Source: Dictyostelium discoideum (taxonomy: Eukaryota). Taken from it: a stretch of DNA of 64,000 nt. A model generated the notes under the pieces. The model saw only the letters and a program-made list of their open reading frames with translations. It did no database searches and was not told the DNA's origin. Shown here in pieces: positions 47,470 to 64,000 of the stretch; the first letter of the stretch is position 1; every line of letters begins with the position of its first letter. The stretch is from positions 4,608,001 through 4,672,000 of the forward strand of contig CM000153.2 of NCBI GenBank assembly GCA_000004695.1, read 5' to 3'. Position numbers and translations under genes: made by a program.

Positions 47470-47552
47470 TAATGAAATTAATAATAATAATAATAAACAC
47501 ATAATAATTTATAAAAATAATAATTAATAAAATAAAATATTTAAAATATATG

Positions 47553-48260
47553 TTATATTATTATTAACAATAATATTATTGTTAATAATAATAATAATAA
47601 ATTTAATTTATTAATTTTTTTAAAAAATAATGATGGCGGTGATGATATTGATGTTGATAAACTATTAAATTGAAAATGCCTAATTTCTTTTAAAATTATT
47701 GAATTTGATTTAAATGATTTTATATTTCTATTATCACATGCTTTACAATTTTCATTACATGATTTAAAATAAATTATATCACCCTCTTCTGAACAATAAT
47801 ATTTTTTATTACCTTCAAGACAAGTATTATTTGAAAATGATTCAACTGTTGTAACTTCTTTTGATAATTTTATAACATAATTACATAATCCATCCAATAG
47901 TATTGGGGAGGTTGTATTTGAAATATTTATAATTACTGATGAATTATCATCATATTTAATACACTTATTTAAGTCATAGAATATTATTGGATTGTAATTA
48001 TCGCAATGGGAATCTTGACTAATGAATATGTTGGGTGAGTATCCTAATCTTTCTATTTCACCTTTATTTATATCACCAACTTTCATATATAACCCATCCT
48101 TTTGACATGGTGTTATGGTTTTTATAAATGTTGCATTACCTTTACATTCGAAATTATTATTTTCATATACAAAAAATGAAATCTTATATCCATTTATTTT
48201 TATAACAAATATTAATAATAATAATATAATATTATATATAAAATTTATTTTAATCATCAT
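47553..48260 (-). CDS. Cys-rich type I membrane/secreted protein (signal peptide, 12+ Cys, C-terminal TM). A paralog of the gene at 62086-62910.
   Basis: A 235-aa ORF with N-terminal MMIKINFIYNIILLLLIFVIKING, a CKG...C...C pattern shared with the 62086 ORF, and a C-terminal LLLLLLTIILLLIII. Confidence 0.45.
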   Translation of the reverse strand: MMIKINFIYNIILLLLIFVIKINGYKISFFVYENNNFECKGNATFIKTITPCQKDGLYMKVGDINKGEIERLGYSPNIFISQDSHCDNYNPIIFYDLNKCIKYDDNSSVIINISNTTSPILLDGLCNYVIKLSKEVTTVESFSNNTCLEGNKKYYCSEEGDIIYFKSCNENCKACDNRNIKSFKSNSIILKEIRHFQFNSLSTSISSPPSLFFKKINKLNLLLLLLTIILLLIII

Positions 48261-49115
48261 TCATTAATTAAAAATTGACAATAAATAATTAATATTAAAA
48301 ATAAAAATAAAAATAAAAATAAAAACAAAAAATAAAAATAAAAATAAAAATAAAAATTATATTTGAAAAAAAAAATAAATAAATAAATTAAATAAATTAA
48401 ATAAATAAAAATAAAAAAAAAAAAAAAAAAAAAAAAGTGTATGTGTGTGTCTATTTTAAAAAATTATTTTTATCACTCTGTAAAAATATTTTTAATTCAT
48501 TCCAAAACTCATAATTAACAAAAGATAAAAAATTTAGATATGTATATAAAAATAAAATTTATTATTTAAATAATAGATTTCAATTTATTGGCAAAATAAC
48601 CTCTTTTTTTTTTATATTAAATAAAAAAAAAAAAAAAAAAAAGAGTATTTATATTAGGTTGTGATGGTAATAAATCAAAAAAACTTATTACTACATAAAA
48701 ATTATTAAATTTTATTTTTTAATTGAAAAATTGTTCTTTTTTTTTTTTTTTTTTATTTTTTATTTTTTTTTTTTTTTCCCCAATACTTAATTTAATCTAA
48801 ATTGGTGAATTTAAAAATAAAAATAAAAATTAAAAAAAATTAAAAAAAACACCTCACTCATTTTTTTGGGTGTGGAAATGAGATTTAATCTTATTATTTT
48901 TAATTTTTTTTTATTTAAAAAAATTAAATTTGGGAAAATAAAAAAAAATTAAGCACATTAATATTTTTTTTTTTTTTTTTTTTTATTCTTATTTTATTTT
49001 TATCCTTTTTGAACACTAAATTATTATTTTTTTTATATATATCAAACACACACTTCACACACAAACACAAACACCATTTTAAAACATAACATTTCTTTTT
49101 TCCTCTCACCACGCA

Positions 49116-49529
49116 ATGTTTTCTCCCAGGGATAGTTTCAATTTCTTTGATGACCCAACTTTTGGTATTAACCTCCAACCTCTCACAACGACGTATGTTG
49201 AAGTGGAAGATTTGGAAAATGATATCAAAAGATTATCAAGTCTGTTCTATGAAGAGACTGTTCATCTTAGTTATAAATTACCCAATTCTTTAAAGAAGTC
49301 TCGAAATTTCTTACAACCATACCTTAATATTAAACCTATTAAACATTCAAGACAAAACTATACACAATTAACAAACTATATAGACCAATCAAAAGACTTA
49401 GTTCAAGAGTGTAAGTCTTGTTTTAGTGATAATGTTGGTGTCAATGATATATTAAGGGATATACTGCGTGATATGGATAGGTTAAAGGTACATTATTGTT
49501 CAGATGGTGGTATATTTTCATCTTTATAG
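49116..49529 (+). CDS. A-family small protein, copy 1 (137 aa). Unrecognised, tandemly amplified family.
   Basis: MFSPRDSFNFFDDPTFGINLQPLTTTYVEVEDLENDIKR...HYCSDGGIFSSL. The ORF is maintained in 4 diverged copies with in-frame indels and clustered non-synonymous changes. Confidence 0.55.
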   Translation: MFSPRDSFNFFDDPTFGINLQPLTTTYVEVEDLENDIKRLSSLFYEETVHLSYKLPNSLKKSRNFLQPYLNIKPIKHSRQNYTQLTNYIDQSKDLVQECKSCFSDNVGVNDILRDILRDMDRLKVHYCSDGGIFSSL

Positions 49530-49852
49530 TTAATACTATAAAAATGGATTTATGCAATCATATTTTAATTTTTACTATTTATATATTCTTTATTTCATTC
49601 TTTTTTTTTTTTCTCTTTCTCTTTTATTTTTGTTTTTTTTCTTTTGTGTAACAAAAATACAAACTTCCAAAACTAAAAAAAAGTAAAAAAACAAAATCAA
49701 ACAAAATCAAACAAAATCAAACAAATAATTTAAAAATCAAATACAAAATCAAAAACAAAGGTAACAGAAAAAATGAAAAAAAAAACAAAATGAAATAAAA
49801 AATATATAAATAATAAAAAAAAAGTTTATCAAACAATACAAATTAAAAATAT

Positions 49853-49914
49853 CCTTCCTTCTAATCAACTTTCAATGTATGAATATACATTGAAGGTTGA
49901 TTAGAAGGGAGGAT
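49853..49914. repeat. Long perfect or near-perfect hairpin / inverted-repeat element (about 24-bp stem, 4-nt loop), with a second short hairpin just downstream. Copies recur in other units.
   Basis: ccttctaatcaactttcaatgtat gaat atacattgaaggttgattagaagg, with one G-T mismatch. It is followed by caatgtatcggatacatt (a 7-bp stem with a G bulge in the right arm). The same element sits at 52299-52360 and, diverged, at 59523-59580. Confidence 0.7.
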
Positions 49915-50467
49915 ATTCAAATCAAATCCCAATGTATCGGATACATTCCTTAGTTAGAATGAAGGGTTTTCTGTTTAGTTTAAAAGAAAAGTGAAATTCT
50001 GTTGCAATATCGATATCTGGTGTCTTAGAGTCAAACTATTTTCTCAATGGCATTCCAATCAATTTCCAAAATACATTCCAGTTTTTCAATCAAAGAAATT
50101 CTATAAATAAACCATTTTAATCCTCTTAAAAAATATTGTTTTGATTTTTTTTTTTTTTTTTTTGATTTTTTTTTTTTTTTAGTTAAATTACTCCTATTAT
50201 TTAAAAAATATTTTTTAACTTCCTTTTATCATTTTTAAAATAATAATTATACCAAAATGTATTTTTCATTTTATAATAGTGAAAATAAAAAATCATTATT
50301 GATGGAATATATTTTAAAAAATGAAAGGACAAAACTAATCCATTTTTTTTTTTTTTTTTTAAGAATATTGGTTTTTTTTTTTTTTTTTTAATCTTATTCA
50401 TAATAAATAGAATAAAATAATAAATACTAATATCTTTTTTTTTTAATTATATCTTTATATTTTTTAA

Positions 50468-50718
50468 AATTAAATGGTGAACTAATAACATTGCAAATCA
50501 AGGCAAATGCAAATAATGTATATGAAAGTGGTGATCAATGTGGTAATTCAACATTTACTTCATTTAATTACAATAATAATAATGTTAAAACATTTATTAC
50601 AATGTCACCTCATCCTGGTAATGTAGTTGAATTTTATAAATATTATACAAATTTTAAAATTAATGGAATTAATTTCAACAATTTCACAAAATGTAAATTA
50701 AATAAAAAAATTAAATAA
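50468..50718 (+). pseudogene. 5' fragment of the B-family (Asn-rich membrane glycoprotein) gene, unit 1.
   Basis: It encodes ...LNGELITLQIKANANNVYESGDQCGNSTFTSFNYNNNNVKTFITMSPHPGNVVEFYKYYTNFKINGINFNNFT, then breaks off into (AAAAT)n and an antisense fragment of the 47553 gene. Confidence 0.5.
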
Positions 50719-50749
50719 AATAATAATAATAATATAATAAAATAAAATT

Positions 50750-50822
50750 AAATAAAATAAAATAAAATAAAATAAAATAAAATAAAATAAAATAAAATAA
50801 AATAAAATAAAATAAAATAAAA
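50750..50822. repeat. (AAAAT)n microsatellite.
   Basis: Direct reading: aaataaaataaaat... about 14 copies. Confidence 0.9.
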
Positions 50823-51531
50823 TAATACAATTGTAACTTCTTTTGATAATTTTATAGCATAAATTAAAATTAAAATAATTCTTGAAAAAAAAAAAATTAA
50901 ATAAATATATAAATAAATAAATAAAAATAAAATTGAAAATAAAAAGTGTATCTGTGTCTATTATAAAAATTAATTTTATCAATCTGTAAAAATATTTTTA
51001 ATCAATTTTAAAACTCATAATTAACAACAGATAAAAAATTAAGATATGCATATATATAAAAAAAAAATTATTATTATTATTAAATAAAAGATAACAAATT
51101 AACCTTCTATTTATTACTATATAAAATTTTTTATTTTACATGAATAATTGGTTTTTTTTTTTTTTTTTTTTATTTTTTTTTTTTTTTGTTTAATATCAAG
51201 ATTGGTGAATTTAAAAATAAAAATAAAAATTTAAAAAAAATTAAAAAAAAACACCTCACTCATTTTTTTGGGTATGGAAATGAGATTTAATCTTATTATT
51301 TTTTTTAATTATTTTTTATTTTTATTTAAAAAAATTAAATTTGGGAAAAAAAAAAAAATTAAGCACCACATTAAGGGTTTTTTTTTTTTTTTTTTTTTAA
51401 TTCTTTTTTTATTTTTATCCTTTTTGAACACTAAATTAAATTAATTATTATTTTTATATATATATATATATATATCCAACACACACACCATTTTTAAAAA
51501 ATAACATTTCTTTTTTCCTCTCCACCACGCA

Positions 51532-51945
51532 ATGTTTTCTCCCAGGGATAGTTTCAATTTCTTTGATGACCCAACTTTTGGTATTAACCTCCAACCTCTC
51601 ACAACGACGTATGTTGAAGTGGAAGATTTGGAAAATGATATCAAAAGATTATCAAGTCTGTTCTATGAAGAGACTGTTCATCTTAGTTATAAATTACCCA
51701 ATTCTTTAAAGAAGTCTCGAAATTTCTTACAACCATACCTTAATATTAAACCTATTAAACATTCAAGACAAAACTATACACAATTAACAAACTCTATTGA
51801 CTATGCAAAAGTCTTTGTTCAAGAGTGTACGGCATGTTTTGATGATAATGTTGGTGTCAATAATTTATTAAGGGATATACTGCGTGGTATGGATAGTTTA
51901 AAGGTGCATTATTGTTCAGATGGTGGTATATTTTCATCTTTATAG
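51532..51945 (+). CDS. A-family small protein, copy 2 (137 aa).
   Basis: Near-identical to copy 1 through residue 85, then diverges (TNSIDYAKVFVQECTACFDDNVGVNNLLRDILRGMDSLKVHYCSDGGIFSSL). Confidence 0.55.
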   Translation: MFSPRDSFNFFDDPTFGINLQPLTTTYVEVEDLENDIKRLSSLFYEETVHLSYKLPNSLKKSRNFLQPYLNIKPIKHSRQNYTQLTNSIDYAKVFVQECTACFDDNVGVNNLLRDILRGMDSLKVHYCSDGGIFSSL

Positions 51946-52298
51946 TTAACACTATAAAAATGGATTTATGCAATCATATTTTAATTTTTACTATTTATAT
52001 ATTCTTTATTTCATTCTTTTTTTTTTTTTCTCTCTTTTATTTTTGTTTTTTTTTGTTTTTTTTTCTTTTGTATATAACAAAAATACAAACTTCCAAAACT
52101 AAAAAAAAGTAAAAAAACAAAATCAAACAAAATCAAACAAAATCAAACAAAATCAAACAAAAAATTTAAAAATCAAATACAAAATCAAAAACAAAGGTAA
52201 CAGAAAAATTGAAAAAAAAAAAAAAAAAAAAAAAAAAATGAAATAAAAATATATAAATAATAAAAAAAAGTTTATCAAACAAAACAAATTAAAAATAT

Positions 52299-52360
52299 CC
52301 TTCCTTCTAATCAACTTTCAATGTATGAATATACATTGAAGGTTGATTAGAAGGGAGGAT
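52299..52360. repeat. Hairpin element, unit-2 copy.
   Basis: Identical sequence to 49853-49914. Confidence 0.7.
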
Positions 52361-52592
52361 ATTCAAATCAAATCCCAATGTATCGGATACATTCCTTAGT
52401 TAGAATGAAGGGTTTTCTGTTTAGTTTAAAAGAAAAGTGAAATTCTGTTGCAATATCGATATCTGGTGTCTTAGAGTCAAACTATTTTCTCAATGGCATT
52501 CCAATCAATTTCCAAAATGCATTCTAGTTTTTCAATCAAAGAAATTCTATAAATAAACCATTTTAATCCTCTTAAAAAATATTGTTTTGATT

Positions 52593-52635
<43 letters not shown>

Positions 52636-52920
52636 TTCAATTACTCCTATTATTAAAAAAATATTTTTTAACTTCCTTTTATCAATTTTAAAATAATAAT
52701 TATACCAAAATGCATTTTTCATTTTATATAAGTGAAAATAAATAATCATTATTCATGGATTATATTTTAAAAAATGAAAGGACAAAACTAATCCATTTTT
52801 TTTTTTATTTTTTAAAATTTTGTTTTTTTTTTTTTCATCTTATTCATAATAAATAGAATAAAATAATAAATACTAATATCTTTTTTTTTTTTTTTTTTTA
52901 ATTTTAGCTTTAAATTTTTT

Positions 52921-53382
52921 AAAATTAAATGGTGAACTAATAACATTGCAAATCAATGCAAATGGAAATAATGTATATGAAAGTGGTGATCAATGTGGTA
53001 ATTCAACATTTACTTATAATTCAATAAATGCAATTTCTTATTTTGAAACAATTAAAGTATATAATCAAACCTCAAAAATTTAAATTTATCCACATTGAAA
53101 TTACTTTAGATGACTCTTTATAAAATTGGTAATCCATTAATACTTTTTCAAAATAAAATTGAAATTTCGCCTTTAAATCAAAAATCTAAAAATGTAATCA
53201 TTGATGATTCTTCAATTAATAACAATAATAATAATAATAATACTAAAACATTTATTACAATGTCACCTCCTCCTGGTAATGTAGTTGAATCTTATAAATC
53301 ATATACAATTTTTAAAATTAATGGAATTAATTTCAACAATTTAACATTTACAATTGTAACTTTTGATAATTTTATAGCATAA
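52921..53382 (+). pseudogene. 5' fragment of the B-family gene, unit 2, with internal stop(s).
   Basis: KLNGELITLQINANGNNVYESGDQCGNSTFTYNSINAISYFETIKVYNQTSKI* ... MTLYKIGNPLILFQNKIEISPLNQKSKNVIIDDSSINNNN...KTFITMSPPPGNVVESYKSYTIFKINGINFNNLTFTIVTFDNFIA*. Confidence 0.5.
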
Positions 53383-54032
53383 ATTAAAATAAAAATAATA
53401 TTTGAAAAAAAAAATTAAATAAATATATAAATAAATAAATAAAAATAAAAATAAAAATAAAAAAAAAAGTGTATGTGTGTCTATTTTAAAAAATTATTTT
53501 TATCGCTCTATAAAAATATTTTTAATTCATTCCAACTCATAATTAACAACAGATAAAAAATTAAGATATGTATATATATAAAAAAAAAAATTATTATTTT
53601 TATTTAAATAATAGATAACAAATTAACCTCATTTTTATTACTATATAACAGTAAAAAATAATATTAACACTTTTTTTTTAAAAAAAAAAAAAAAAAAAAA
53701 ATAATAAAAAAAAAAACTGATCACTTAATTTTAGGTGAAAAAAAAAAATAAAAAATAAAAAAAAATAAAAAAAAAATATATATTTTGTTAAGGAATTTAC
53801 AAACAACAAAAAAAATTAATTTTTTTTTTTTTTTCTATTTTTTTTTTTATTTTTTTTATTTTTTTTATATTCACCTAAAATTTTTTTTTTTTTCTCATTT
53901 TTTTTTTTTTTTTTTTTTTTTTATAACACTATAATTAAATTAATAATAATAAAATAATAAAATAATTTAATTGTTTTTTTATATATCAAAAACACATATA
54001 TAATATTTTAAAACTCAAACTTTTCTACTACA

Positions 54033-54341
54033 ATGTCTTCTCAAGAAGGTGACCTTCCCCCTCTCAGCGATTACCCAGATGCAACTAAAGTGGATGAATT
54101 ATGGTGTAAAATCATTGCCCAATCAACTACTCCCCTTGAAATAACCAATTTATTGAACCAGTTTTCCCATTTCTTAAAGCCATGCCAAGTTAACTCACTT
54201 TCAAAGAACCCACAAACGAAAAAATTACTAGAACATTTAGAAAAGTGTAGGGGCCCATGTAATAATGATAATACCAACAATTTATTAAGCGATATGATAC
54301 AGAATGTCCAAAATTTAATTATATTATTAATGATCCCATAA
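54033..54341 (+). CDS. Divergent small ORF occupying the A-gene slot of unit 3 (102 aa). A possible distant A-family member.
   Basis: The ORF MSSQEGDLPPLSDYPDATKVDELW... is followed by the same conserved downstream block (tatagttaactactataaatatggatttatgcaatcac) as the A genes. Its C-terminal NLLSDMIQNVQNL resembles the A-family NNLLRDILRDMDRL. Confidence 0.3.
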   Translation: MSSQEGDLPPLSDYPDATKVDELWCKIIAQSTTPLEITNLLNQFSHFLKPCQVNSLSKNPQTKKLLEHLEKCRGPCNNDNTNNLLSDMIQNVQNLIILLMIP

Positions 54342-54901
54342 AGCAATAATAATTATATCATGTAATGGTATATTTTCAACTTTATAGTTAACTACTATAA
54401 ATATGGATTTATGCAATCACTATAGTTTAATTTTTATTATTTAAATTTTATTTATATAATATTTATTTCATTCTTTTTTCTTTGTTAACAAAAATACAAA
54501 CATCCCACACAATACAAAATCAAAAACAAAGATAAAAGAAAAACAAAAAAAATGAAATAAATAATATATAAATAATAAAAAATTAAATAATAAAAGTCAA
54601 ACAAATTAAAAATATGCTTTGATACATTCGTTTGTTACAAGGAGGGATTTTCTGTTAAATTTCGTTGCAATATCTGGTACCTTAGAGTCAAACTATTTTC
54701 TTGGTGTCATTCTAGTCAATTACCTAAATGTTTCCTGTTTCAATCAAAGAAATTCTCTAAATAAATTTAAAAACCTTACAAAAACTTTTTTTTTTTTTTT
54801 TTTTTTTTTATTTTATTTTATTTTTTTTTTTAATTTTAATTATCCATAATAATCAATCAAAACATTAAAAAAAAAAAAATAAAAAAAAATAAAATGATAA
54901 C

Positions 54902-55198
54902 ATGTATATATATATTTTTTTAATTTTAACTTTTTATTTTTTAAAATTAAATGGTGAACTAATAACATTGCAAATCAATGCAAATGGAAATAATGTATAT
55001 AAAAGTGGTGATCAAAGTGGTAATTCAGCATTTAAATGTAATTCAATAAATGATGCAATTTCTTATTTTGAAACAATTAAAGTATATAATCAATCATTGA
55101 TGGCACCGATTAATAACAATAATAATACTATTAAAATATTTATAACAATATCACCTCTCCTCCTCTTGGTAATATGGTTGAATAAAAATAAAAAATAA
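54902..55198 (+). pseudogene. 5' fragment of the B-family gene, unit 3 (signal peptide plus first domain only).
   Basis: MYIYIFLILTFYFLKLNGELITLQINANGNNVYKSGDQSGNSAFKCNSINDAISYFETIKVYNQSLMAPINNNNNTIKIFITISP.... Confidence 0.45.
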
Positions 55199-55745
55199 AA
55201 AGTGGTTGTGTATCAATCTTAAAATTTTATTTTATCACTCTGTAAAAATATTTTTAATTCATTCCAAAAATCATAATTAACCACAGATAAAAAAAATATA
55301 TTGTTTAAATAATAGATATTTTATTACCAATTAACCTCACTTATTTTGCTATATAAAAAGTGTTGATTTATATTATTACTTTAAAAAAAAAAAATAATAA
55401 CATTGGGATTTAATTTTATTTTTTACTCCAAAAAATTATCATTATTTTTTTTTTTTTTTTTTTTATAATATTAAATTAAAAAAAATAAATAAAATTAAAA
55501 AAACATGTTCTCTTATTTTTTTGGGTTAAAATGAAAATGAGATTTAATTTAATTATTTTTTTTTTCCACTCCCAAAATTTTTTAATTTTTTTTTATTTTT
55601 TTCATTTTTAAATTTTTTTTTTTTAGACACCATTTTTTTTTTTTTTCATTCCTTTTTTTATTTTCATCCATTTTGCACTATAATTATTATAATTATTTTT
55701 AAACACACACACTATTTTAAACATTTCTTTCCTTTCTTCCACGCA

Positions 55746-56138
55746 ATGTTTTCTACCTGGAATTTCTTTGATGACCCTCCTGGTATTAACCTCGAACCTC
55801 TCACAGCGACCTACGTCGAAGTGGAAGGGATAGAGAATGATATCAAGAGAGGATCGAGTCAATTCTATGAAGATACTGTTCATCTTTGTTTTAAATTACC
55901 CAGGTTTTTAAAGAAATCTCGCAATTTCTTACAGCCGTACCTTGATATTAAACATTCGAGACTAAACTATACACAATTAACAAACTCTATAGACTATTCA
56001 AAAGTCTTTGTTGAAGAGTGTATAGCATGTTTTGGTGATAATGTTGGGGTCAATAATTTATTAAAGAATATTCTGCGTGATATGGATAGGCTAAAGGTAC
56101 ATTATTGTTCAGATGGTGGTATATTTTCATCTTTATAG
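55746..56138 (+). CDS. A-family small protein, copy 3 (130 aa, with in-frame deletions relative to copies 1 and 2).
   Basis: MFSTWNFFDDPPGINLEPLTATYVEVEGIENDIKR...HYCSDGGIFSSL. Confidence 0.55.
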   Translation: MFSTWNFFDDPPGINLEPLTATYVEVEGIENDIKRGSSQFYEDTVHLCFKLPRFLKKSRNFLQPYLDIKHSRLNYTQLTNSIDYSKVFVEECIACFGDNVGVNNLLKNILRDMDRLKVHYCSDGGIFSSL

Positions 56139-56228
56139 TTAAAACTATAAAAATGGGTTTATACAATCATAGTTTAATTTTTATTCTTTATTATTACTAT
56201 TTCATTCTCTTTTTTTTACTTTCACCTT

Positions 56229-56285
<57 letters not shown>

Positions 56286-56439
56286 TTACAAAATACAAAC
56301 ATCACACACAACAAAAAATAACAAAAAACCAAAACAAAATCAAACAAAATCAAACAAAATCAAATATGAAGGGTAAAAGAAAAAATGAAAAAAAAAAAAA
56401 ATAATCAAAAAAGTCAAACTATACAAATTAATAATATCC

Positions 56440-57560
56440 TTCCTTCTAACCAACCTTCATTGATATATCCGACGATAATACACCGAATGTTCAACAGAAG
56501 GAAGGAATTCAAATCTACCTCAATGTATCCTACGAGGATACATTGCGAGCTCCCAAGGATATTCAAATCTATCTCATTAGAATGAAGGATATTCAAATCT
56601 ACCCCAATGTATCCTATGAGGATACATTGCGAGCCCCCAAGGATATTCAAATCTATCTTCAATGAATCCGATGGATAATATTGGACACTCATTAGAATGA
56701 AGGATATTCAAATCAACCCCAATGTATCCTACGAGGATACATTGCGAGCCCCAAGGATATTCAAATCTATCTTCAAAGTATCCAATTGATAATACCTTGA
56801 AAACTAATTAGAATGAAGGATATTCGCCCCAATCTTCAATGTATCCGATAGGATACATTGAACCCTCTCAAGAAGGATATTCAATCTATCCTCAATGTAT
56901 CCAATTGATAATACCTTGAACACTCATTAGAATGAGGGATATTCAAATAAACCTTCGATGTATCCGATAGGATACATTGAACCCTCACCGAAATGATATT
57001 CAAATCTATCTTCAATATATCCAATGGATAATATATTGAACACTCAGTAGAAGGAAGGATATTCAAATCAACCTTCAATGTATCTGATACATTGAACCCT
57101 TATCAGAAGGATATTCAGTCTATATTCAATGTATCCGATGGATAATACATTGAACACTCAATAGAAGGAAGGATATTCATATCAACCGGTCAGATACATT
57201 GAACACTCATTAGAATGAAGGATATTCAAATCAATCTCCAATGTATGGGATAAATTCATCGGTTAGAAGGAAGGATATTTAATCAACCTTCAATGTATTC
57301 GATCGGATACATTTAACGCTCACTAGAAAGAAGGATATTCAAATCAATATCCAATGCATCCCATCGGCATACAGAACGCTCACTAGAGAAGGATATTCAA
57401 ATCAACCTCCAATGTATTGGATACATTCGTTGATTTGGGTCCTTCTCTAGTGAGCGTTCAATGTATGCCGATGGGATGCACTGAACGCTGATTAGAAGGA
57501 AGGATATTCAAATCAATGCCAATGTATGGAATACATTCATTGGTTAGAAGGAAGGATTTA
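56440..57560. repeat. Satellite-like array of about 20 tandem, hairpin-forming 52-63 bp units. There are two alternating subtypes, giving a higher-order repeat of about 115 bp, and a palindromic inversion centre near 57430. The array is derived from the single hairpin element of the other units.
   Basis: Units begin with ggatattcaaatc and contain the palindrome caatgtatcc...ggatacattg. The subtypes are ...ccccaatgtatcctacgaggatacattgcgagccccaa and ...tcttcaatgtatccaattgataataccttgaacactcattagaatgaa. Near 57372-57458 the arms acgctcactagagaagga / tccttctctagtgagcgt form a larger inverted repeat. GC content is markedly above local background. Confidence 0.8.
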
Positions 57561-57949
57561 AAAACAGAAAAAACTAAAAAAAGAAAAGTGAAATTCCATG
57601 TGCCTTGGAGTCAAACAATTTTCCCATTGAAATTCCAGTCAATTACCAAAATGCATTGCTGTTTCAATAAAGAAATTCTCTAAATAAATTTCAATACCAT
57701 TTTAATCCTCTTAATCAAAACAATAGTTTTTTTTTTTTTTTTAAATTAGTCCTTTTAGATTTTATTAAATAAAAAATATTTTTTTAACATCCATTTAATA
57801 ATAATAATTAAACCAAACGTATTTTTCATCATTAATAATAAAAAATGAAAAGACTATTTTTTTTTTTTATTATTATTCATATTAAATAGTATAAAATAAT
57901 AAATAATAATATCTTTTTTTTTTTAATTTTTAACTTTTTATTTTTTATA

Positions 57950-58400
57950 ATTAAATGGTGAACTAATAACATTGCAAATCAATGCAAATGGAAATAATAT
58001 GAAAGTGGTGACCAATGTGGTTATTCAACATTTACATGTAATTCAATAATTAATGCAATTTCTTATTTTAAAAAAATTAAAGTATATAATCAATCCTCAG
58101 AAATTTAAATTTATCAACCATTGAAATTACTTTTAGATGATTGTATATATAAAATTGGTAATCAATAATATTTTTTCAATATAATATTGAAATTTTGCCT
58201 TTAAATCAAAAATCTAAAAATGTAATCATTAATGATTCTTCAATTAATAACAATAATAATAGTATTAAAACATTTATTATAATATCACCTCCTGGTAATG
58301 TGGTTGAATCTTATACAATTTTTTAAACTAGTGGAAATAAATTCAACAATTTCACATTTACAATTGTAACTTCTTTAAATAATTTTTAACATAATTACAT
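57950..58400 (+). pseudogene. Degenerate 5' fragment of the B-family gene, unit 4, fused to an antisense fragment of the 47553 gene.
   Basis: attaaatggtgaactaataacattgcaaatcaatgcaaatggaaataat... with frameshifts. It ends in ataattacataatccatccaatagtattgg, the reverse complement of the 47553 CDS segment encoding GLCNYVIKLSKEVTTV. Confidence 0.4.
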
Positions 58401-58464
58401 AATCCATCCAATAGTATTGGTGGGGTTGTATTTGAAATATTTATTTTTTACATGTATAAAATTG

Positions 58465-58523
<59 letters not shown>

Positions 58524-58772
58524 CTAGTATGAATTTAAAATAAAAATTAAAAGCAATTAAATTAAAAAATCACTTCTCTCATTTTTTTAAGTTTTGTGTA
58601 AAATATCTCGAGATTTAATCTAATTATTTATTTTTTTTTTTTTTTTTTTTAATTTTTAAATTTTTTTTTTTTTTTTTTTCACCTTTAAATTTGATTTTTT
58701 TTTTTCATTCTCTTTGAATAAGACCTTACTGTTTTAATTTTAATATTTCTTTTTTTCCCATCCACCACGGCA

Positions 58773-59159
58773 ATGTTTTCTCCCGGGGATAGTTTCAATT
58801 TCTATGATGACCCAACTCTTGGTATTAACCTCCAACCTCTCACAACGACGTATGTTGAAGTGGAAGATATAGAGAATGATATCAAGAGAGTATCAAGTAT
58901 GTTCTATGAGGACACTGTTCTTCTTAGTTATAAATTACCCGAGCATTTAAAGAAATCACGTAATTTCTTACAGCCATACCTTGATATTAAACATTCAAAA
59001 TTAAACTATACACAACTAACAAACTCTATTGACTTTGCAAAAGTCTTTGTTAAAGAAGGTATAGCTTGTTTTGGTGATAATGTTGGTATCAATAATTTGT
59101 TAGAAGATATATTGCGTGATATGGATAGGTTAAAGGTATATTATATTGAAATAGTGTAG
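58773..59159 (+). CDS. A-family small protein, copy 4 (128 aa, altered C-terminus).
   Basis: MFSPGDSFNFYDDPTLGINLQPLTTTYVEVEDIENDIKR...DMDRLKVYYIEIV*. Confidence 0.5.
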   Translation: MFSPGDSFNFYDDPTLGINLQPLTTTYVEVEDIENDIKRVSSMFYEDTVLLSYKLPEHLKKSRNFLQPYLDIKHSKLNYTQLTNSIDFAKVFVKEGIACFGDNVGINNLLEDILRDMDRLKVYYIEIV

Positions 59160-59431
59160 CATATTTTCATTTTTATAGTTAACATTATAAAAATGGATTT
59201 ATGCAACAATATTTTAATTTTTATTATTATTTTAATTTTTATATTATTTATTTCATTCTTTTTTTTTCTTCTTTTTTTTCTTTATTTTTTTCTTTTTTTT
59301 GTTTGTACTTCCCACACAACAACAAAAAAAAAAAAAACAAAAACAAAAAAATAACAAAAGATAACCAAACAAAATCAAACAAAATCAAACAAAATCAAAT
59401 AAAATCAAAAACAAAGGTAATAGAAAAAATG

Positions 59432-59468
<37 letters not shown>

Positions 59469-59522
59469 AAATATATAATATATAAATAATAAAAAAAGTT
59501 TATCAAACAATATTAAAAATAT

Positions 59523-59580
59523 ACTTCCTTCTAATCAAACTTCAATGTTTGGATACATTGAAGGTTGATCAGAAGGAAGA
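59523..59580. repeat. Hairpin element, unit-5 copy (diverged).
   Basis: cttccttctaatcaaacttcaatgtttggatacattgaaggttgatcagaagg. Confidence 0.6.
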
Positions 59581-60006
59581 ATATTCAAATCCCAATGTAT
59601 CGGATACATTCCTTGGTTAGAATGAAGGGTTTTCTGTTTATTTTAAAGAAAAGCGAAATTCTGTGGCAATATCGACATCAGGTGCCTTAGAGTCAAACTA
59701 TTTTTTCAATAACATTCCAATCAATTTTCAAAATGCATTCCAGTTTTTCAATCAAGGAAATCCCCTAAAATAAATTTAAATACCATTTTAATACATAAAA
59801 ACTGTAACTTTTTTTTTTTTTTTTTTTTTTTTTAGTTCAATTACTCCTATTTTATTAAAAAATATTTTTTAACTTTCTTTTACCATACCAAATGTATTTT
59901 TCATTTTAAATGTAATGAAAATCATTATTTGAAGAATATATTTTAAAAAATGAAAGGACAAAACTTACCCAGATTTTTTTTTTTTGGATTTTCAAGAAAA
60001 AAAATA

Positions 60007-60037
<31 letters not shown>

Positions 60038-60475
60038 GAGTAAACTTTGTCTTTTTAAATTTTATTAAATAAAAAAATATTTTTTTAACATCTATTTAAA
60101 TAATAATTAAACCAAATTTATTTTTCATCATTAATAATAAAAAATAATTATTATTCAAACAATTTATTTTAAAATAAAATGGAAAGACGATTTTTTTTGA
60201 GGTTTTATAGAAAACCTTCATTTTCTTGAAACACACAATTTTATTTATTTTTATTTTTATATTTTTAAATTTTTTTTTTTTGGGTTTTAAAGAAAAACCA
60301 TCTTTTTCCCAATAACTACAATTTTATTTATTTTTATTTTTATTTTTTTTAATTTTTTTTTTGGATATTTTCTTAAAAACAGACCATTTTGATTTTATTT
60401 TCTATTTTTTTTTTTTTTTTTTTATTTTAATCATTCGATCGAAACATTAAAAAAAAAAAAAAAAAAAATTATAAA

Positions 60476-61993
60476 ATGATAAAATATATTTTTCCATTTT
60501 TTTTAATTTTAACTTTTTATTTTTTAAAATTAAATGGTGAACTAATAACATTGCAAATCAATGCAAATGGAAACAATGTATATAAAAGTGGTGATCAGTG
60601 TGGTAACTCAACATTTACATGTAATTCAATAAATGATGCAATTTCTTATTTTGAAACAATTAAAGTATACAATTAATCATCAGAAATTCAAATTTATCAA
60701 CCATTGAAATTACTTTTAGATGATGGTATTTATAAAATTGAAAATCAATTAATACTTTTTGAATATAATATTGAAATTTCACCTTTAAATCTAAACTCTA
60801 AAAATGTAACCATCGATGGTACCTCAATTTATAACAATAATAATAATAATATTAAAACATTTATTACAATATCACCTCCTACAGGTAATATAGTTGAATC
60901 CTATAAATCCCATAGCATTTTTAAAATTAATGGAATTAATTTCAATAATTTCACATTTACAATAATTTACATTTATAAAACTTATTTAAATGTAGTAGGA
61001 TCATTTGAAAATTGTAATTTTAATAATTTTAAAAGTGAATTTCCAATGTTTTACCTAATTAATAATAATAATAATAACATAATAAGTAATTTATATTATA
61101 ATATAAATTCATCATTTGCTTTAACGAATTGTTCAATGATCAGTAATTCAAATATAGGTTATAATTCATCTATAATTAATAGTAAAAAATTCAGTGTACT
61201 TATTTATCGATCAAAATTCCAATCAATTAATGAATGTAATAATTTTGGTTACTTTTATGATAGTTCTCGATTAACAATTTATAATAGTTCAATAAATAAT
61301 AATAATTGTAAAATAATTTTCAATATAAATAAAATTAATAAGTTAGATGTATTCAATACAAAATTTGAAAATAATAATGGAACAATATTCAATATTAAAT
61401 TTAATTCAAATGAAGGTTTAATTTCAATTAAAAATAGTAGCTTTATCAATAATTATGGTGGTAGTATTATTAATTTAGAATCAAATAATAATATTCCTTT
61501 TGAAAATTTAAAAAAAAATCCACAACTATTTAGAGACTCTACATTTTTTAATAATTCATTCAATGGAAATGGAAGTATAATTAATTCAATTGGTGCTTAT
61601 TTTATTGTTTCTGGTGAATTTGAAAATAATAAAGCATTAAATCACCAAGGTGATTTATTTTATTTACAAGATAGTTATTGTTTAATAGAAGATTCAAAAA
61701 TAAATCAAGTTAATAATTTACCAAGTGGTAAAGGTTCAATAATTTATTTACAAAAATCAGAATTAGAAATATCAAGTGGTAATTTCAAACTAGATGGTTC
61801 ACTTGTTTGTAATTCTTCAAAAATAAAACTTTTACGAAATACAATTGTTTTTAAACCTACTATTGACTGTCAAAATTGTACCTTTAATAACAATAATTAT
61901 TGTGAACTTAATTTTGGAATAAAAAATAAAATATCAATTCTTTTAAATTTAATAATATTATTACTATTATTATTATTATCACTATCAATATAA
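60476..61993 (+). CDS. Full-length B-family gene: an Asn-rich, heavily N-glycosylated type I membrane protein with beta-helix-like (PbH1-type) repeats and a C-terminal TM. The single reading frame is interrupted by one in-frame TAA at 60674-60676, so it is a possible recent pseudogene or a sequencing error.
   Basis: The ORF-track ORFs 60476-60676 and 60704-61993 are in the same frame (codon starts 2 mod 3), separated by one taa. The downstream part has no ATG for 112 codons. The product has a signal peptide MIKYIFPFFLILTFYFLKLNG, then repeats such as NSSFINNYGGSIINLESNNN and FENNKALNHQGDLFYLQDS, and a C-terminal [20 protein letters not shown]. Confidence 0.5.
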
Positions 61994-62085
61994 TTAATAA
62001 AATAAACAAGAAATAAAAAAAAAAATCACTTTTATTTTTAATTTTTAATTTTTAATTTTTATTTTTAATATTTAATTTTTAATTT

Positions 62086-62910
62086 TCAAAGTGATATTAA
62101 TAAAATTAATAATGATACAATTGTTGAAATAATATTAATATTTAAAAAAGAACTAGATGAATCAAAGTCATTTGATGATGATGATGATGATAATGAAGAT
62201 AATTGAGAATCAAAAGAAAATGAAGGAGTTGTATAATTTACAGTTTGATTGATTGGATTTGAATCAGTGAGGAAATTAAACATTTTTAAGGATTTGAAAT
62301 TATCACAATTTGTACTATTTGAAGGATATGTTTGTTTTAAAATACATGATTGCGGTTTACAATCACTTGTTAAACATTCATAAACATTAATTGTCATACC
62401 ATCTTTACCAATACATTCTCTCCTTTGATATCTAATTGTTGTACTATTATTACTATTATCATTTGAAGACGTTTCTAATTTTAATGGATCATTACCAAAA
62501 TTCATTTTAATACATGTATTATTTCTATAAGAATTTATGAAATAATTTTCACAATTAAAATAATTTACTTCATTACAATAGGTATCTATATTTCTTGGAT
62601 TAAACTCTGAATCGTTTATGATATATTGATATGATGTACCATCAGTGTTTAAATAACATTGTTTGGTTTGTACAAATTCTGTTATATCTCGTTCGATTGA
62701 ACATTGATCTTGATTATTAACTTTTGTGATTGCTAATTTACCACCTGCTCCTTTTTGAAAGTATGAATATCTTGAACAATTTGTACTACCAATTGTAAAT
62801 AATAATTCTCCTTTACATAATATATTACTATATTTAATTATATGTACTTCAAATCCAATTATTTTTTTAATTAAAAATATAATAAATATAATTTTTATTA
62901 TTAATTTCAT
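62086..62910 (-). CDS. Cys-rich type I membrane protein with a Ser-rich juxtamembrane region. A paralog of the gene at 47553-48260.
   Basis: A 274-aa ORF with signal MKLIIKIIFIIFLIKKIIG, a CKG....C...C pattern, and a C-terminal TM IISTIVSLLILLISL. Confidence 0.45.
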   Translation of the reverse strand: MKLIIKIIFIIFLIKKIIGFEVHIIKYSNILCKGELLFTIGSTNCSRYSYFQKGAGGKLAITKVNNQDQCSIERDITEFVQTKQCYLNTDGTSYQYIINDSEFNPRNIDTYCNEVNYFNCENYFINSYRNNTCIKMNFGNDPLKLETSSNDNSNNSTTIRYQRRECIGKDGMTINVYECLTSDCKPQSCILKQTYPSNSTNCDNFKSLKMFNFLTDSNPINQTVNYTTPSFSFDSQLSSLSSSSSSNDFDSSSSFLNINIISTIVSLLILLISL

Positions 62911-62954
62911 GTCTTTTTTTTTTTTGATTTAATTTAAATACATTTATTATTTGG

Positions 62955-62987
<33 letters not shown>

Positions 62988-63349
62988 AACACAAAACTGT
63001 ATAGAAAAAAAAAAAAATTTTAAAAATAAAATAAAATAAAAAATCTCAAACTACAATTAACACACATACATACACACAAACCCAACAAAATAAATAAAAA
63101 AAAATAAAAAAATAATTAAAAAAATAATTAAAAAAATAATAAAAAAAAAAAAATAATTAAAAAAAAAATTCAAATCATTTAATTAATTAAAAATAGATAG
63201 CAGAAAAAAAAAAAAAAAATAAAAATAAAAATAATAATAATAATAAAAATATCATTTTCACTCACTTTTTTTTATATATTTAAAACTTTATTTTTTATTT
63301 CCATTGCATTTCATTTAATTTTTTGGAACTATATTGAATTTGATGCTTT

Positions 63350-63393
<44 letters not shown>

Positions 63394-63664
63394 AAAAATA
63401 AAAATAAAAATAAAAATAAAAATAAAACAAAATTAAAAAAAAAAACCAAAATTAAAAATTTTTTTTTTTTTTCGCCCACATATAAGTTTCAATTTGAAAT
63501 TTAAAAGACACCAGTGTCTTCAAAAAAAAAGAGTTAATAGGTTTTTTTTTTTTTTTCAATCTTCTCTTTTATTTATTTTATTTATTTCATTTTTTTTTTT
63601 TTTTTTTTTCATTTTTTTTATAAATTATACATATTCAATTAAATAAGCGCATAAAAAAAAAAAA

Positions 63665-63834
63665 ATGACAATTCTAACCAAACCTCACCAATTACAAAAT
63701 TGTGAAAAATTCCATCCATGGGCAAAAACATGCACATCATCAGCATCACAAATTTGGTTTGCAGTATTCCTTGCAGGTTTAAAACTATACGCACCATTAT
63801 TTTTAGTTCCTGCATTAATATTTAAAAGAAAAAG
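63665..63834 (+). CDS. First exon of a TMEM135-like (peroxisomal membrane protein) gene. The rest lies beyond the window.
   Basis: MTILTKPHQLQNCEKFHPWAKTCTSSASQIWFAVFLAGLKLYAPLFLVPALIFKRK, followed by a GTAATA donor at 63835. The NC.....HPW...C.......W......L..Y.PL.L...L.KRK pattern matches my recollection of the TMEM135 N-terminus. A read-through stop occurs 1 codon after the donor. Confidence 0.4.
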
Positions 63835-63859
63835 GTAATAAATTTCATACAAACAACAA

Positions 63860-63958
63860 TAAACAAACAAACAAACAAACAAACAAACAAACAAACAAAC
63901 AAACAAACAAACAAACAAACAAACAAACAAACAAACAAACAAACAAACAAACAAACAA
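63860..63958. repeat. (CAAA)n microsatellite (about 25 copies), intronic or intergenic.
   Basis: Direct reading. It generates the spurious minus-strand ORF 63685-63954 (FVCL repeats). Confidence 0.9.
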
Positions 63959-64000
63959 AAAGATATTGAAAGAGAGAAACAATTGGAAATAATAATAATA

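Follow-up and report, generated by a model that had tools for sequence, protein, structure and literature searches.

What kind of element is the GC-rich run of repeated hairpins that lies inside a tandem gene cluster on chromosome 4 of Dictyostelium discoideum, how did it arise, and do its hairpins serve a purpose? Within the 64-kb stretch of DNA analysed here (the window), the array spans 56433-57557 on the plus strand, about 1.1 kb, and comprises some 20 head-to-tail units of about 49-65 nt. We consider it, with a probability of roughly 0.6, to be a non-coding hairpin minisatellite (VNTR) that was locally expanded from an inverted-repeat module, is partly stable and is possibly transcribed. 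It has the attributes of a VNTR, namely tandem units of the 10-100-bp class, a copy number that varies between strains at one locus, and no coding content.

The array is far beyond chance. With at most one mismatch allowed, the motif AGGATATTCAAATC is found at 16 places in the window, of which 13 lie inside the array (0.09 expected), and CAATGTATC-N0-8-GATACATTG occurs five times where 0 are expected. TRF reports periods of 114 and 119 at 5.3 copies (scores 733 and 668), as well as periods of 54-58 and 84. Cuts at AGGATATT yield 17 anchored units of 30-111 nt, to which one inverted unit and, at the left edge, two degenerate ones are added for the count of about 20. An A subtype (52-57 nt) alternates with a B subtype (61-63 nt), forming a higher-order repeat of 114-119 nt. 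The GC content of the array is 0.36, compared with 0.15 and 0.12 in its flanks and 0.23 in the whole window. These measurements bear out a preliminary description of the locus, which had claimed about 20 head-to-tail units, two alternating subtypes with a higher-order repeat of about 115 bp, and a composition richer in GC than the surroundings.

The units are not uniform. Their palindrome arms and the AGGATATTCAAATC motif are conserved at 80-95% among units, and their loops and tails at 35-70%. The motif is the best conserved part (at least 90% per column) and recurs every 49-65 nt in all three strains compared. The palindrome caatgtatcc/ggatacattg, previously assigned to every unit, occurs in its exact form in only four or five of them; most others carry variants, and three or four (56556, 57170, 57219, 57332) have lost the palindrome. 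Most unit stems measure only 10-12 bp. When the whole array is folded as RNA, z is -17 on the plus strand and -12 on the minus strand relative to dinucleotide shuffles.

Sequence in inverted orientation is found at the ends of the array, in the following elements.

57353-57480, no strand assigned: terminal long palindrome, 128 nt and near-perfect, formed by a direct unit and an inverted one and centred on 57419

56433-56470, plus strand: left-edge inverted element AATATCCTTCCTTCTAACCAACC..., a homologue of the progenitor hairpin's 5' arm that is complementary to unit junctions

57540-57557, plus strand: right-edge element TTGGTTAGAAGGAAGGAT, which repeats 56436-56453 perfectly in inverted orientation

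The orientation flip noticed earlier near 57372-57458 is real, and its extent has to be corrected to the full 128-nt palindrome. The stem is about 60-70 bp long, with a dG of -90.8 kcal/mol on the plus strand and -95.2 kcal/mol on the minus strand (z about -15), and is conserved in the other strains (dG -83.6 in L002 and -102.8 in L003). Besides this palindrome, only the 18-38-nt left-edge element is complementary to the unit junctions, perfectly over 18-19 nt to 57261-57279 and 57540-57557 and at 74-94% to many others. The inversion is local; taken as a whole, the array is a direct repeat and cannot fold into the single large cruciform that had been proposed.

In AX4 both arms of the palindrome read TGCATCCCATCGG in their distal part, in L003 both read AAATCAGTCCCC(C)ATCGG, and L002 is mixed. 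The two arms appear to exchange sequence by arm-to-arm conversion. Selection for an RNA stem could also be invoked for this co-variation, but its multi-nucleotide character is better explained by conversion. Large genomic palindromes, such as those of sex chromosomes, undergo gene conversion between their arms. As in those palindromes, both arms here share a strain-specific multi-nucleotide variant, as conversion predicts, although each arm is only about 60 bp long rather than kilobases to megabases.

The cluster that contains the array is specific to the species, and each of its units runs from gene A through a non-coding segment into the 5' part of gene B. There are five such units, A1, A2, A' (the diverged fifth), A3 and A4, and the expanded array stands beside A3. 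A Pfam scan of the A1, A' and B proteins found no domain, and no homologues of gene A or gene B were found outside D. discoideum. The gene next to the array and the corresponding modules of the other cluster units are as follows.

55746-56138, plus strand: gene A3, 130 aa, an orphan of the DDB_G0286587 family, directly upstream of the array

49848-49965, plus strand: A1 progenitor module, a 33-bp hairpin (49848-49917) and one direct unit

52294-52411, plus strand: A2 progenitor module, identical to that of A1, with its hairpin at 52294-52363

54621-54654, plus strand: half unit of A', the diverged fifth cluster unit, with no hairpin

59519-59628, plus strand: A4 progenitor module, with a more degraded hairpin at 59519-59584 (dG -41/-46 kcal/mol)

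In A1, A2 and A4, the progenitor has two parts, a hairpin of about 30-33 bp and, after it, one further direct unit of about 55 nt; the A1 hairpin has a dG of -53.5 kcal/mol and a z of -8.5. The statement that the other four cluster units each carry one progenitor hairpin therefore holds for these three and fails for A', which has only the half unit. The module is single in three paralogous units and has no other copy in the window, which agrees with a local expansion as originally suggested. Beyond the cluster positions, no copy of the unit was found in the roughly 125 kb searched (the 64 kb of the window and three 20-kb loci).

The preliminary description had named collapse of the array as an assembly artefact as a refuting result, and this test fails. 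The independent assembly GCA_054883475.1, from a near-identical, AX4-like strain, is 99.5% identical over 18.3 kb, differs only by homopolymer lengths and a few SNPs, and shows zero differences over window positions 56255-58464. It thus reproduces the array exactly, and two further strains carry it at the same cluster position. The array spans 1125 bp in AX4, 1466 bp in GCA_054859355.1 and 1259 bp in GCA_054859385.1. Since its copy number differs between strains, it is a hot spot of slippage or unequal exchange, and the earlier idea of a slippage hot spot gains support. Two parts of the array can be told apart.

56936-57389, plus strand: stable part, with units that can be matched by position to orthologues in L002 and L003

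56496-56935, plus strand: dynamic part, in which strains differ by duplicated blocks of two or three units

Judged by these alignments, the right two thirds of the array are stable and the left third gains and loses blocks. Orthologous units of the stable part are mostly 89-100% identical between strains, as against 71-87% to the nearest unit of the same array; the last one, at 57332, matches at only 81% between strains. The dynamic part of L002 contains a 191-nt trimer three times and poly-C tracts of up to 21 nt. All three strains share, in the stem of one unit, a double change from G:C to A:T.

Is the array transcribed? Plus-strand non-coding transcription across it, strand included, is suggested by signals read from the sequence only. 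These lie on both sides of the array.

56118-56168, plus strand: conserved element GGTATATTTTCATCTTTATAGTTAA..CTATAAAAATGG.., just past the stop codon of gene A3, with a TATAAAAA box and an 8-bp inverted repeat

56227-56284, plus strand: T58 homopolymer followed by a G (56285), seen with TRF and in the composition profile and resembling a transcription start site

56285-56432, plus strand: A/C-rich leader with a (AAACAAAATC)3.3 microsatellite and no conserved ORF

57575-57690, plus strand: conserved non-coding block ending in AATAAA (57683-57688), with a T-run (57726-57741) after it

At the T58 homopolymer, whose length varies between assemblies, the AT skew flips from -0.89 to +0.75. Dictyostelium pri-miRNAs begin at a G after up to 26 T-rich nt, and the two mapped start sites, those of pri-mir-1176 and pri-mir-1177, are found at distances of 281 and 116 nt upstream of the 5p arm (Liao 2018, PMC6161686). 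The array has an exon-like GC content, and three automatic gene models run gene A into the module. On the other side, the AATAAA and the T-run form a putative 3' end of a plus-strand transcript. The block that they close was aligned in 10 copies from three strains, with 95-98% identity between strains and the AATAAA present in every copy; indels of 17, 22 and 8 nt mark it as non-coding. A small minus-strand ORF in this block (LRGLKWFIYRISLIEKLECILEIDWNAIEKIV) was rejected because paralogues carry 8- and 22-nt indels inside it.

The element at 56118-56168 is found in all five cluster units (49509, 51925, 54367, 56118) and is 88% identical between A1 and A', against only 36-60% for the coding parts of these two units. 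It may serve as core promoter for a downstream non-coding unit or, as in the AX4 model of the paralogue, represent the 5' end of an intron. Between A1 and A', conservation is higher in the non-coding elements that surround the module than in the A coding sequence, so the whole segment may be functional. The array would lie inside a plus-strand Pol II transcript that ends at the conserved AATAAA. This transcript would be either an independent non-coding RNA from the T58/G site or a 3' exon or UTR of gene A3, and an array within it would be expressed as a multi-hairpin RNA.

Several other explanations have to be weighed against a non-coding minisatellite. A protein-coding repeat, or an assembly artefact, is hardly credible. 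The minus strand of the array does contain ORFs; they measure 65-92 aa in AX4 and reach 87 aa in L002, in which 57 + 63 = 120 nt holds the frame, and the annotation of one strain calls a 115-aa gene there. Units of 49, 52, 53, 58, 61 and 62 nt break the frame, and because unit lengths are mostly not multiples of three the array is non-coding; a protein search with the 87-aa ORF returned no homologue at E <= 10. The minus-strand ORFs at 56414-56692 and 56881-57078 are thus generated by the repeat, as the preliminary description had held, and with the independent assembly and the strain comparison these results refute both coding and artefact. Two annotation errors can be flagged as well: the 115-aa gene, and the terminal "exon" of DDB_G0286587, since what AX4 annotates as the last coding exon of this gene is the 5' part of the A2 module, a hairpin arm. 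A MITE-like origin, in which a non-autonomous DNA transposon with terminal inverted repeats was inserted and then expanded internally, had also been put forward and is very improbable. The perfect 18-nt inverted termini (56436-56453 and 57540-57557) and the inverted-repeat structure of the progenitor module would suit it, but the termini arise because the unit junction is complementary to a single 5' arm. Moreover, every copy sits at the same homologous position of the duplicated cluster unit, the flanks show no convincing target-site duplication, and neither the 64-kb window nor the three 20-kb loci hold a further copy. Among Dictyostelium elements, thug-S is a DNA transposon with an intron (Meier 2016, PMC4894637) and a source of multicopy miRNAs (Meier 2016, PMC4894637; Liao 2018). 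The array resembles MITEs and thug-S in its terminal inverted repeats, its hairpin potential and its want of coding capacity, and differs in showing no evidence of mobility or dispersal; from thug-S it is set apart by that element's description. Decidedly unlikely, too, is a cis-regulatory or architectural array in which AGGATATTCAAATC, or the TTGA-rich TTGAAGGTTGATTTGAAT on the minus strand, is a candidate protein-binding site whose roughly 20 repeats tune neighbouring expression or chromatin. The strong conservation of AGGATATTCAAATC and its regular spacing in all three strains would be in its favour, as would the gene B copy at 57915, about 350 nt downstream of the array. This copy looks like a truncated fragment, with a 5' match of only 183 nt (57915-58097) and no ORF of at least 50 aa, known binding sites went unmatched in any test run, and conservation of a motif within tandem repeats is expected from common descent alone. 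Full-text literature searches matched the unit sequences only in two papers, both unrelated, and gave no match with gene IDs and assembly accessions, and a metagenome scan for GGATATTCAAATC-N4-9-CAATGTAT gave four single matches in unrelated contigs, which we take as chance.

The remaining alternative gives the hairpins a role in RNA interference. DrnA or DrnB would dice a plus-strand transcript both in the terminal stem of 60-70 bp and in the unit hairpins of 10-33 bp, and the small RNAs would act in cis or on the A-family modules; we regard this as unlikely. The hairpins look like good Dicer substrates. The high-confidence miRNA criteria of Kozomara & Griffiths-Jones 2014, in the form given by Table S1 of Liao 2018, ask for a folding energy under -0.2 kcal/mol/nt and a duplex in which 60% or more is paired; the hairpin at 49848-49917 has -53.5 kcal/mol over about 70 nt with 33/33 pairs, and the palindrome at 57353-57480 has -91 kcal/mol. 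The 33-bp hairpin reaches -0.76 kcal/mol/nt and the terminal palindrome -91 to -103 kcal/mol (three strains); the near-perfect hairpins of mir-1184 and mir-1185 have -0.72 and -0.73 (Liao 2018, PMC6161686). The T-run and G about 150-200 nt upstream of the hairpin, comparable to those of pri-mir-1176 and pri-mir-1177, the two imperfections of the A1 hairpin, both G.U on the plus strand, and the array 21-mers complementary with one or two mismatches to the A1, A2 and A4 modules, and not to A coding sequence or B, also fit dicing. Against it, the hairpins are absent from the published D. discoideum miRNA lists searched: k-mers covering the arms have no match among the miRNAs of Liao 2018 Table S1, in the supplements of Edelbroek 2024, where a positive control shows miRNA sequences to be present, or in the small subset formed by the text supplements of Meier 2016. 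At the gathering threshold, Rfam has zero matches in the whole window; a permissive search yields only sub-threshold matches to unrelated miRNA hairpin models on both strands (42.9 against 74 bits and 51.3 against 100 bits), and ARAGORN finds no tRNA. Compensatory covariation was not found: the six copies of the 33-bp hairpin are 94% paired and have 0 double changes, and their covariation score equals that of the shuffled control, so there is no sign of RNA-level selection on this hairpin. In addition, several units have no hairpin, A' retains the flanking elements and not the hairpin, and the module is known from D. discoideum only. Quite unlikely is the more specific proposal of an endogenous hairpin-RNA gene, a Pol II non-coding RNA with its own T-run/G promoter and AATAAA, whose roughly 20 hairpins and 60-70-bp stem would be diced into siRNAs that hit A-family transcripts in trans, with copy number tuning the dose.

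A non-coding minisatellite expanded from the progenitor module remains the preferred reading, and its history may be pictured as follows. A unit of about 55 nt would have been amplified head to tail in one cluster unit, the likely causes being slipped-strand mispairing and unequal exchange, both favoured by the palindromic cores. The A/B dimer (about 115-120 nt) would have formed first and then been amplified itself, and a single template-switch or inversion event could have produced the terminal 128-nt palindrome. The expansion is older than the split of the sampled strains. At present, the right two thirds are stable, with mutually diverged units, the left third still changes by blocks, and the arms of the terminal palindrome appear to convert each other. 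A dedicated function of the expansion itself is unproven and is more likely absent than present. The conservation of the arms and the motif, together with the retained G:C to A:T stem change, hints that the hairpins or a binding motif are under some constraint, and it fits a purely neutral array less well.

Like minisatellites in general, the array has head-to-tail units of tens of base pairs, a dimeric higher-order repeat, no coding content, copy-number change concentrated at one end, and self-complementary units that favour slippage. Unlike them, it has an identifiable single-copy inverted-repeat progenitor in paralogous cluster units and ends in a long palindrome with co-evolving arms, and it is rich in GC and complex, whereas the other repeats of the genome are mostly simple and A/T-rich. 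The Drosophila hpRNA hp-CG4068 reportedly consists of about 20 tandem hairpin repeats that yield endo-siRNAs. The array shares with it some 20 tandem hairpin units associated with a protein-coding gene, and with animal hpRNA loci more generally a long inverted repeat that, if transcribed, Dicer would accept as a substrate. D. discoideum miRNA genes (mir-1184, mir-1185, pri-mir-1176/1177; PMC6161686) are similar in being intergenic, in having a near-perfect hairpin of comparable energy per nucleotide, and in having a T-rich run and G 100-300 nt upstream and a polyadenylation signal downstream. The array differs from these genes in being multi-copy and tandem, with mostly 10-12-bp stems and outside the searched catalogues, and from hp-CG4068 in that its complements are found only in paralogous modules.

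The locus provides a case of a small inverted repeat seeding a complex minisatellite, one that shows the progenitor as well as the expanded array and three allelic states. If the array were transcribed and diced, tandem hpRNA would be a new class of small-RNA source in the RNAi repertoire of Dictyostelium, and the strains would offer a natural allelic series for dose effects. If the hairpin-RNA gene were true, it would parallel, by convergence and in an amoebozoan, the tandem hpRNA loci of Drosophila.

The array at 56433-57557, on D. discoideum chromosome 4, is real: a hairpin minisatellite that is non-coding and varies between strains. It lies in a species-specific cluster of orphan genes and formed when an inverted-repeat module there was amplified locally. 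TRF reports it as a tandem array with a period of 114/119 in 5.3 copies (score 733/668), plus periods of 54-58 and 84. When the sequence is cut at AGGATATT, 17 anchored units result; with one inverted unit and the two degenerate ones that lie at the left edge, there are about 20 in all. A-type units of 52-57 nt (...CAATGTATCC-loop-GGATACATTG-AACCCTC...) alternate with B-type units of 61-63 nt (...TTCAATGTATCCAATGGATAATACATTGAACACTCATTAGAATGA). Allowing up to one mismatch, the window contains 16 occurrences of the 14-mer AGGATATTCAAATC (0.09 expected); the spaced palindrome is found five times (0 expected). These counts and the TRF result bear out the preliminary description of a satellite-like tandem array of hairpin units. 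GC content is 0.36 in the array, 0.15 and 0.12 in its flanks and 0.23 in the window.

Based on RNA folding, many units form 10-12-bp stems (-14 to -18 kcal/mol in A type, weaker in B type), and some have lost the palindrome. The fold of the whole array is far more stable than those of dinucleotide shuffles (z = -17 for the plus and -12 for the minus strand), as these local hairpins would lead one to expect. The orientation flip reported previously is real and corresponds to a 128-nt palindrome (57353-57480; -91/-95 kcal/mol, z about -15). Apart from this terminal palindrome and a left-edge element complementary to unit junctions (56433-56470), the array is a direct repeat throughout; thus the single whole-array cruciform also proposed is impossible.

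Chromosome CM142510.1 of GCA_054883475.1 (L001), reached through A3, the gene A copy upstream of the array, matches window 45732-64000 with 99.5% identity in the alignment, differing from AX4 only in homopolymer lengths and a few SNPs. There are no differences between 56255 and 58464, so a separately assembled, near-identical strain has exactly the same array. Since the array is also present in two further strains, L002 (GCA_054859355.1) and L003 (GCA_054859385.1), the assembly artefact once considered can be dismissed. Long homopolymers (T58, T54, A30+; 56227-56284, 58465-58518, 52590-52635, 59432-59465 and others) differ between AX4 and GCA_054883475.1, the latter being shorter in every case; this is either real instability or sequencing-platform compression.

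In L002 and L003 the array follows the middle one of three gene A copies, and it spans 1466 and 1259 bp, respectively, compared with 1125 bp in AX4. Beginning at AX4 56936 and moving right, most units pair by position with an orthologue in L002/L003 at 89-100% identity (81% for the last, at 57332), whereas identity to the most similar unit of the same array is only 71-87%. Thus, the expansion predates the strain split and the right part has been stable. In the left third, strain differences are duplicated blocks; L002 has a 61+65+65-nt trimer in three copies, as well as poly-C tracts that reach 21 nt. Those at L002 11115-11136 and 11313-11327 (21 and 15 nt) lie within A-type units where AX4 has C5, and are unusual for a 77% A+T genome.

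Between 48.9 and 62 kb, five units (A1, A2, A', A3 and A4, named after their gene A copies) form a tandem cluster, and in each of them gene A is followed by a non-coding segment and then the 5' part of gene B. The features of this cluster are as follows.

Features of the cluster (window positions unless stated)
48900-62000 (L002 7900-16800; L003 4800-13200): A/B orphan-gene cluster
49116-49529: gene A ORF (A1 copy); protein matches in D. discoideum only
49509-49561, 51925-51977, 54367-54420, 56118-56168: conserved element of ~50 nt after the gene A stop, containing TATAAAAA
56227-56284: T-rich run (T58) with G at its end
56332-56364, 49688-49726, 52118-52160, 59367-59400: (AAACAAAATC)n microsatellite in the A-rich leader, conserved upstream of every module or array
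49848-49917: A1 hairpin; 33-bp perfect stem, -53.5 kcal/mol, z -8.5
52294-52363: A2 hairpin, identical to that of A1 in sequence, stem, energy and z
59519-59584: A4 hairpin, more degraded than those of A1 and A2
54033: A', the fifth, diverged unit; half a repeat unit only, without the hairpin
57683-57688: conserved AATAAA ending a block of ~115-130 nt after the module or array, followed by another T-run
50491-50718, 53110-53382, 54902-55198, 57915-58097: apparent truncated 5' gene B fragments (75-98 codons) after A1, A2, A' and A3

A single module, a hairpin followed by one direct unit, occupies the homologous position in three other cluster units. In its hairpin, the 3' half of the unit supplies the 3' arm and an inverted copy of the unit junction the 5' arm, and it is with this 5' arm that the array begins on the left. 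No transposon is therefore needed to account for the perfect 18-nt inverted termini of the array (56436-56453 and 57540-57557), and this structure, together with the matching cluster positions, identifies the array as a local amplification. Local expansion of a one-copy progenitor, as first proposed, therefore stands, although three rather than four other units carry the module, A' having only the half unit. The ~55-nt unit would have been amplified locally, first to an A/B dimer, which would then have been amplified into the dimer array.

The terminal palindrome occurs in all three strains (plus strand: AX4 -91, L002 -84, L003 -103 kcal/mol). In AX4 both of its arms have the distal sequence ...TGCATCCCATCGG and in L003 both have AAATCAGTCCCC(C)ATCGG, while L002 is mixed (left arm L003-type, right arm AX4-type). 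Because both arms carry an identical multi-nucleotide replacement, arm-to-arm conversion or template switching of DNA most simply accounts for the changes; alternatively, selection for a long RNA stem could have kept the arms matched.

The array is non-coding. Unit lengths in AX4 (30, 54, 61, 53, 63, 57, 62, 57, 63, 52, 62, 49, 53, 60 and 58 nt), and similar ones in the other strains, break every reading frame. Minus-strand ORFs of 65-92 aa are confined to places where 57+63 = 120 nt keeps the frame by chance, and a search of 5.8 billion proteins with one of 87 aa found no match at a cut-off as loose as E <= 10; they are repeat-generated, as had been suggested. The GCA_054883475.1 annotation places a 115-aa intron-containing gene wholly within the array (window ~56696-57449, plus strand; L001 10928-11681). 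This call is almost certainly spurious, since its frame is repeat-made and it has no homologues.

After each gene A stop, the order is the TATAAAAA element, a T-rich run and G, an A/C-rich leader, the module or array, the AATAAA block and a T-run. The post-stop element (consensus GGTATATTTTCA.CTTTATAGTTAA..CTATAAA.ATGG.TTTAT.CAATC; inverted repeat TTTATAGT/ACTATAAA) may act as a promoter, mark the 5' end of an intron or be another kind of signal. The AATAAA block is non-coding, since its paralogous copies differ by indels of 17, 22 and 8 nt; it is 95-98% identical between strains. A1 and A' share 82-88% identity over the TATA element, leader and block (post-stop element 88%), compared with only 36-60% over gene A coding sequence. 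Dictyostelium pri-miRNAs start at a G after up to 26 T-rich nt (Liao et al. 2018, PMC6161686, section 2.8), and for the two mapped starts the distance to the downstream 5p arm is 116 and 281 nt (Liao et al. 2018, PMC6161686). The array locus is similar, with ~150-200 nt separating the T-run and G from the hairpin downstream. Another possibility is that this AT-rich stretch is an intron of gene A, given that the AX4 model of DDB_G0286587 (the paralogue at 51532) ends in a 26-codon exon (VYQTKQIKNILPSNQLSMYEYTLKVD, then stop; 52271-52351) that is the translated 33-bp hairpin, and two strain annotations also run gene A paralogues into the module. However, these extensions use different frames and lack conservation; most likely they are artefacts of annotation. 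Under either reading, plus-strand transcription through the array is probable from the sequence.

It is unlikely that the locus is a small-RNA source or tandem hairpin-RNA gene. Its stem energy per nt equals that of the accepted near-perfect Dictyostelium miRNA hairpins mir-1184 and mir-1185, the promoter-like motif is consistent with such a role, the A1 hairpin's two imperfections are G.U pairs on the plus strand, and array 21-mers are complementary (1-2 mismatches) to paralogous modules only. Against this, arm k-mers are absent from searchable published miRNA tables and supplements (a positive control was found), Rfam gives nothing at gathering level and below it only generic hairpin matches on both strands, six homologous hairpins contain no compensatory changes, and several units and A' lack the hairpin. 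Conservation among AX4 units is highest in AGGATATTC and the palindrome arms and lowest in loops and tails, and a double change from G:C to A:T in one stem persists in all strains, a weak hint of possible constraint. A metagenome scan returned chance matches only, and literature searches on the array sequence, gene IDs and assemblies found nothing relevant. The multicopy DNA transposon thug-S, which has an intron, yields miRNAs (Meier 2016, PMC4894637; Liao 2018, PMC6161686).

The gene A and B families have no Pfam domain, and protein searches detect no homologues beyond D. discoideum. The sole full-length gene B copy is the last (60476-61993); its ORF (60704-61993) is 100% identical to DDB_G0286791. 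The copies after A1, A2, A' and A3 appear to be 5' fragments, the fourth without an ORF of 50 aa or more, so the duplication unit ends inside gene B. AX4 has four gene A copies plus the diverged A', and L002 and L003 have three each; gene B proteins are only 70-84% identical between strains. Beside the cluster, a secreted-looking 274-aa protein (62086-62910, minus strand) matches the Pfam entry for counting factor-associated protein A/B/C weakly and below threshold (E 0.0035, 17.8 bits; cut-off 28.6). The array is an instance of an already known class, VNTR or hairpin satellite, and the A/B cluster is a fast-evolving, species-restricted locus.
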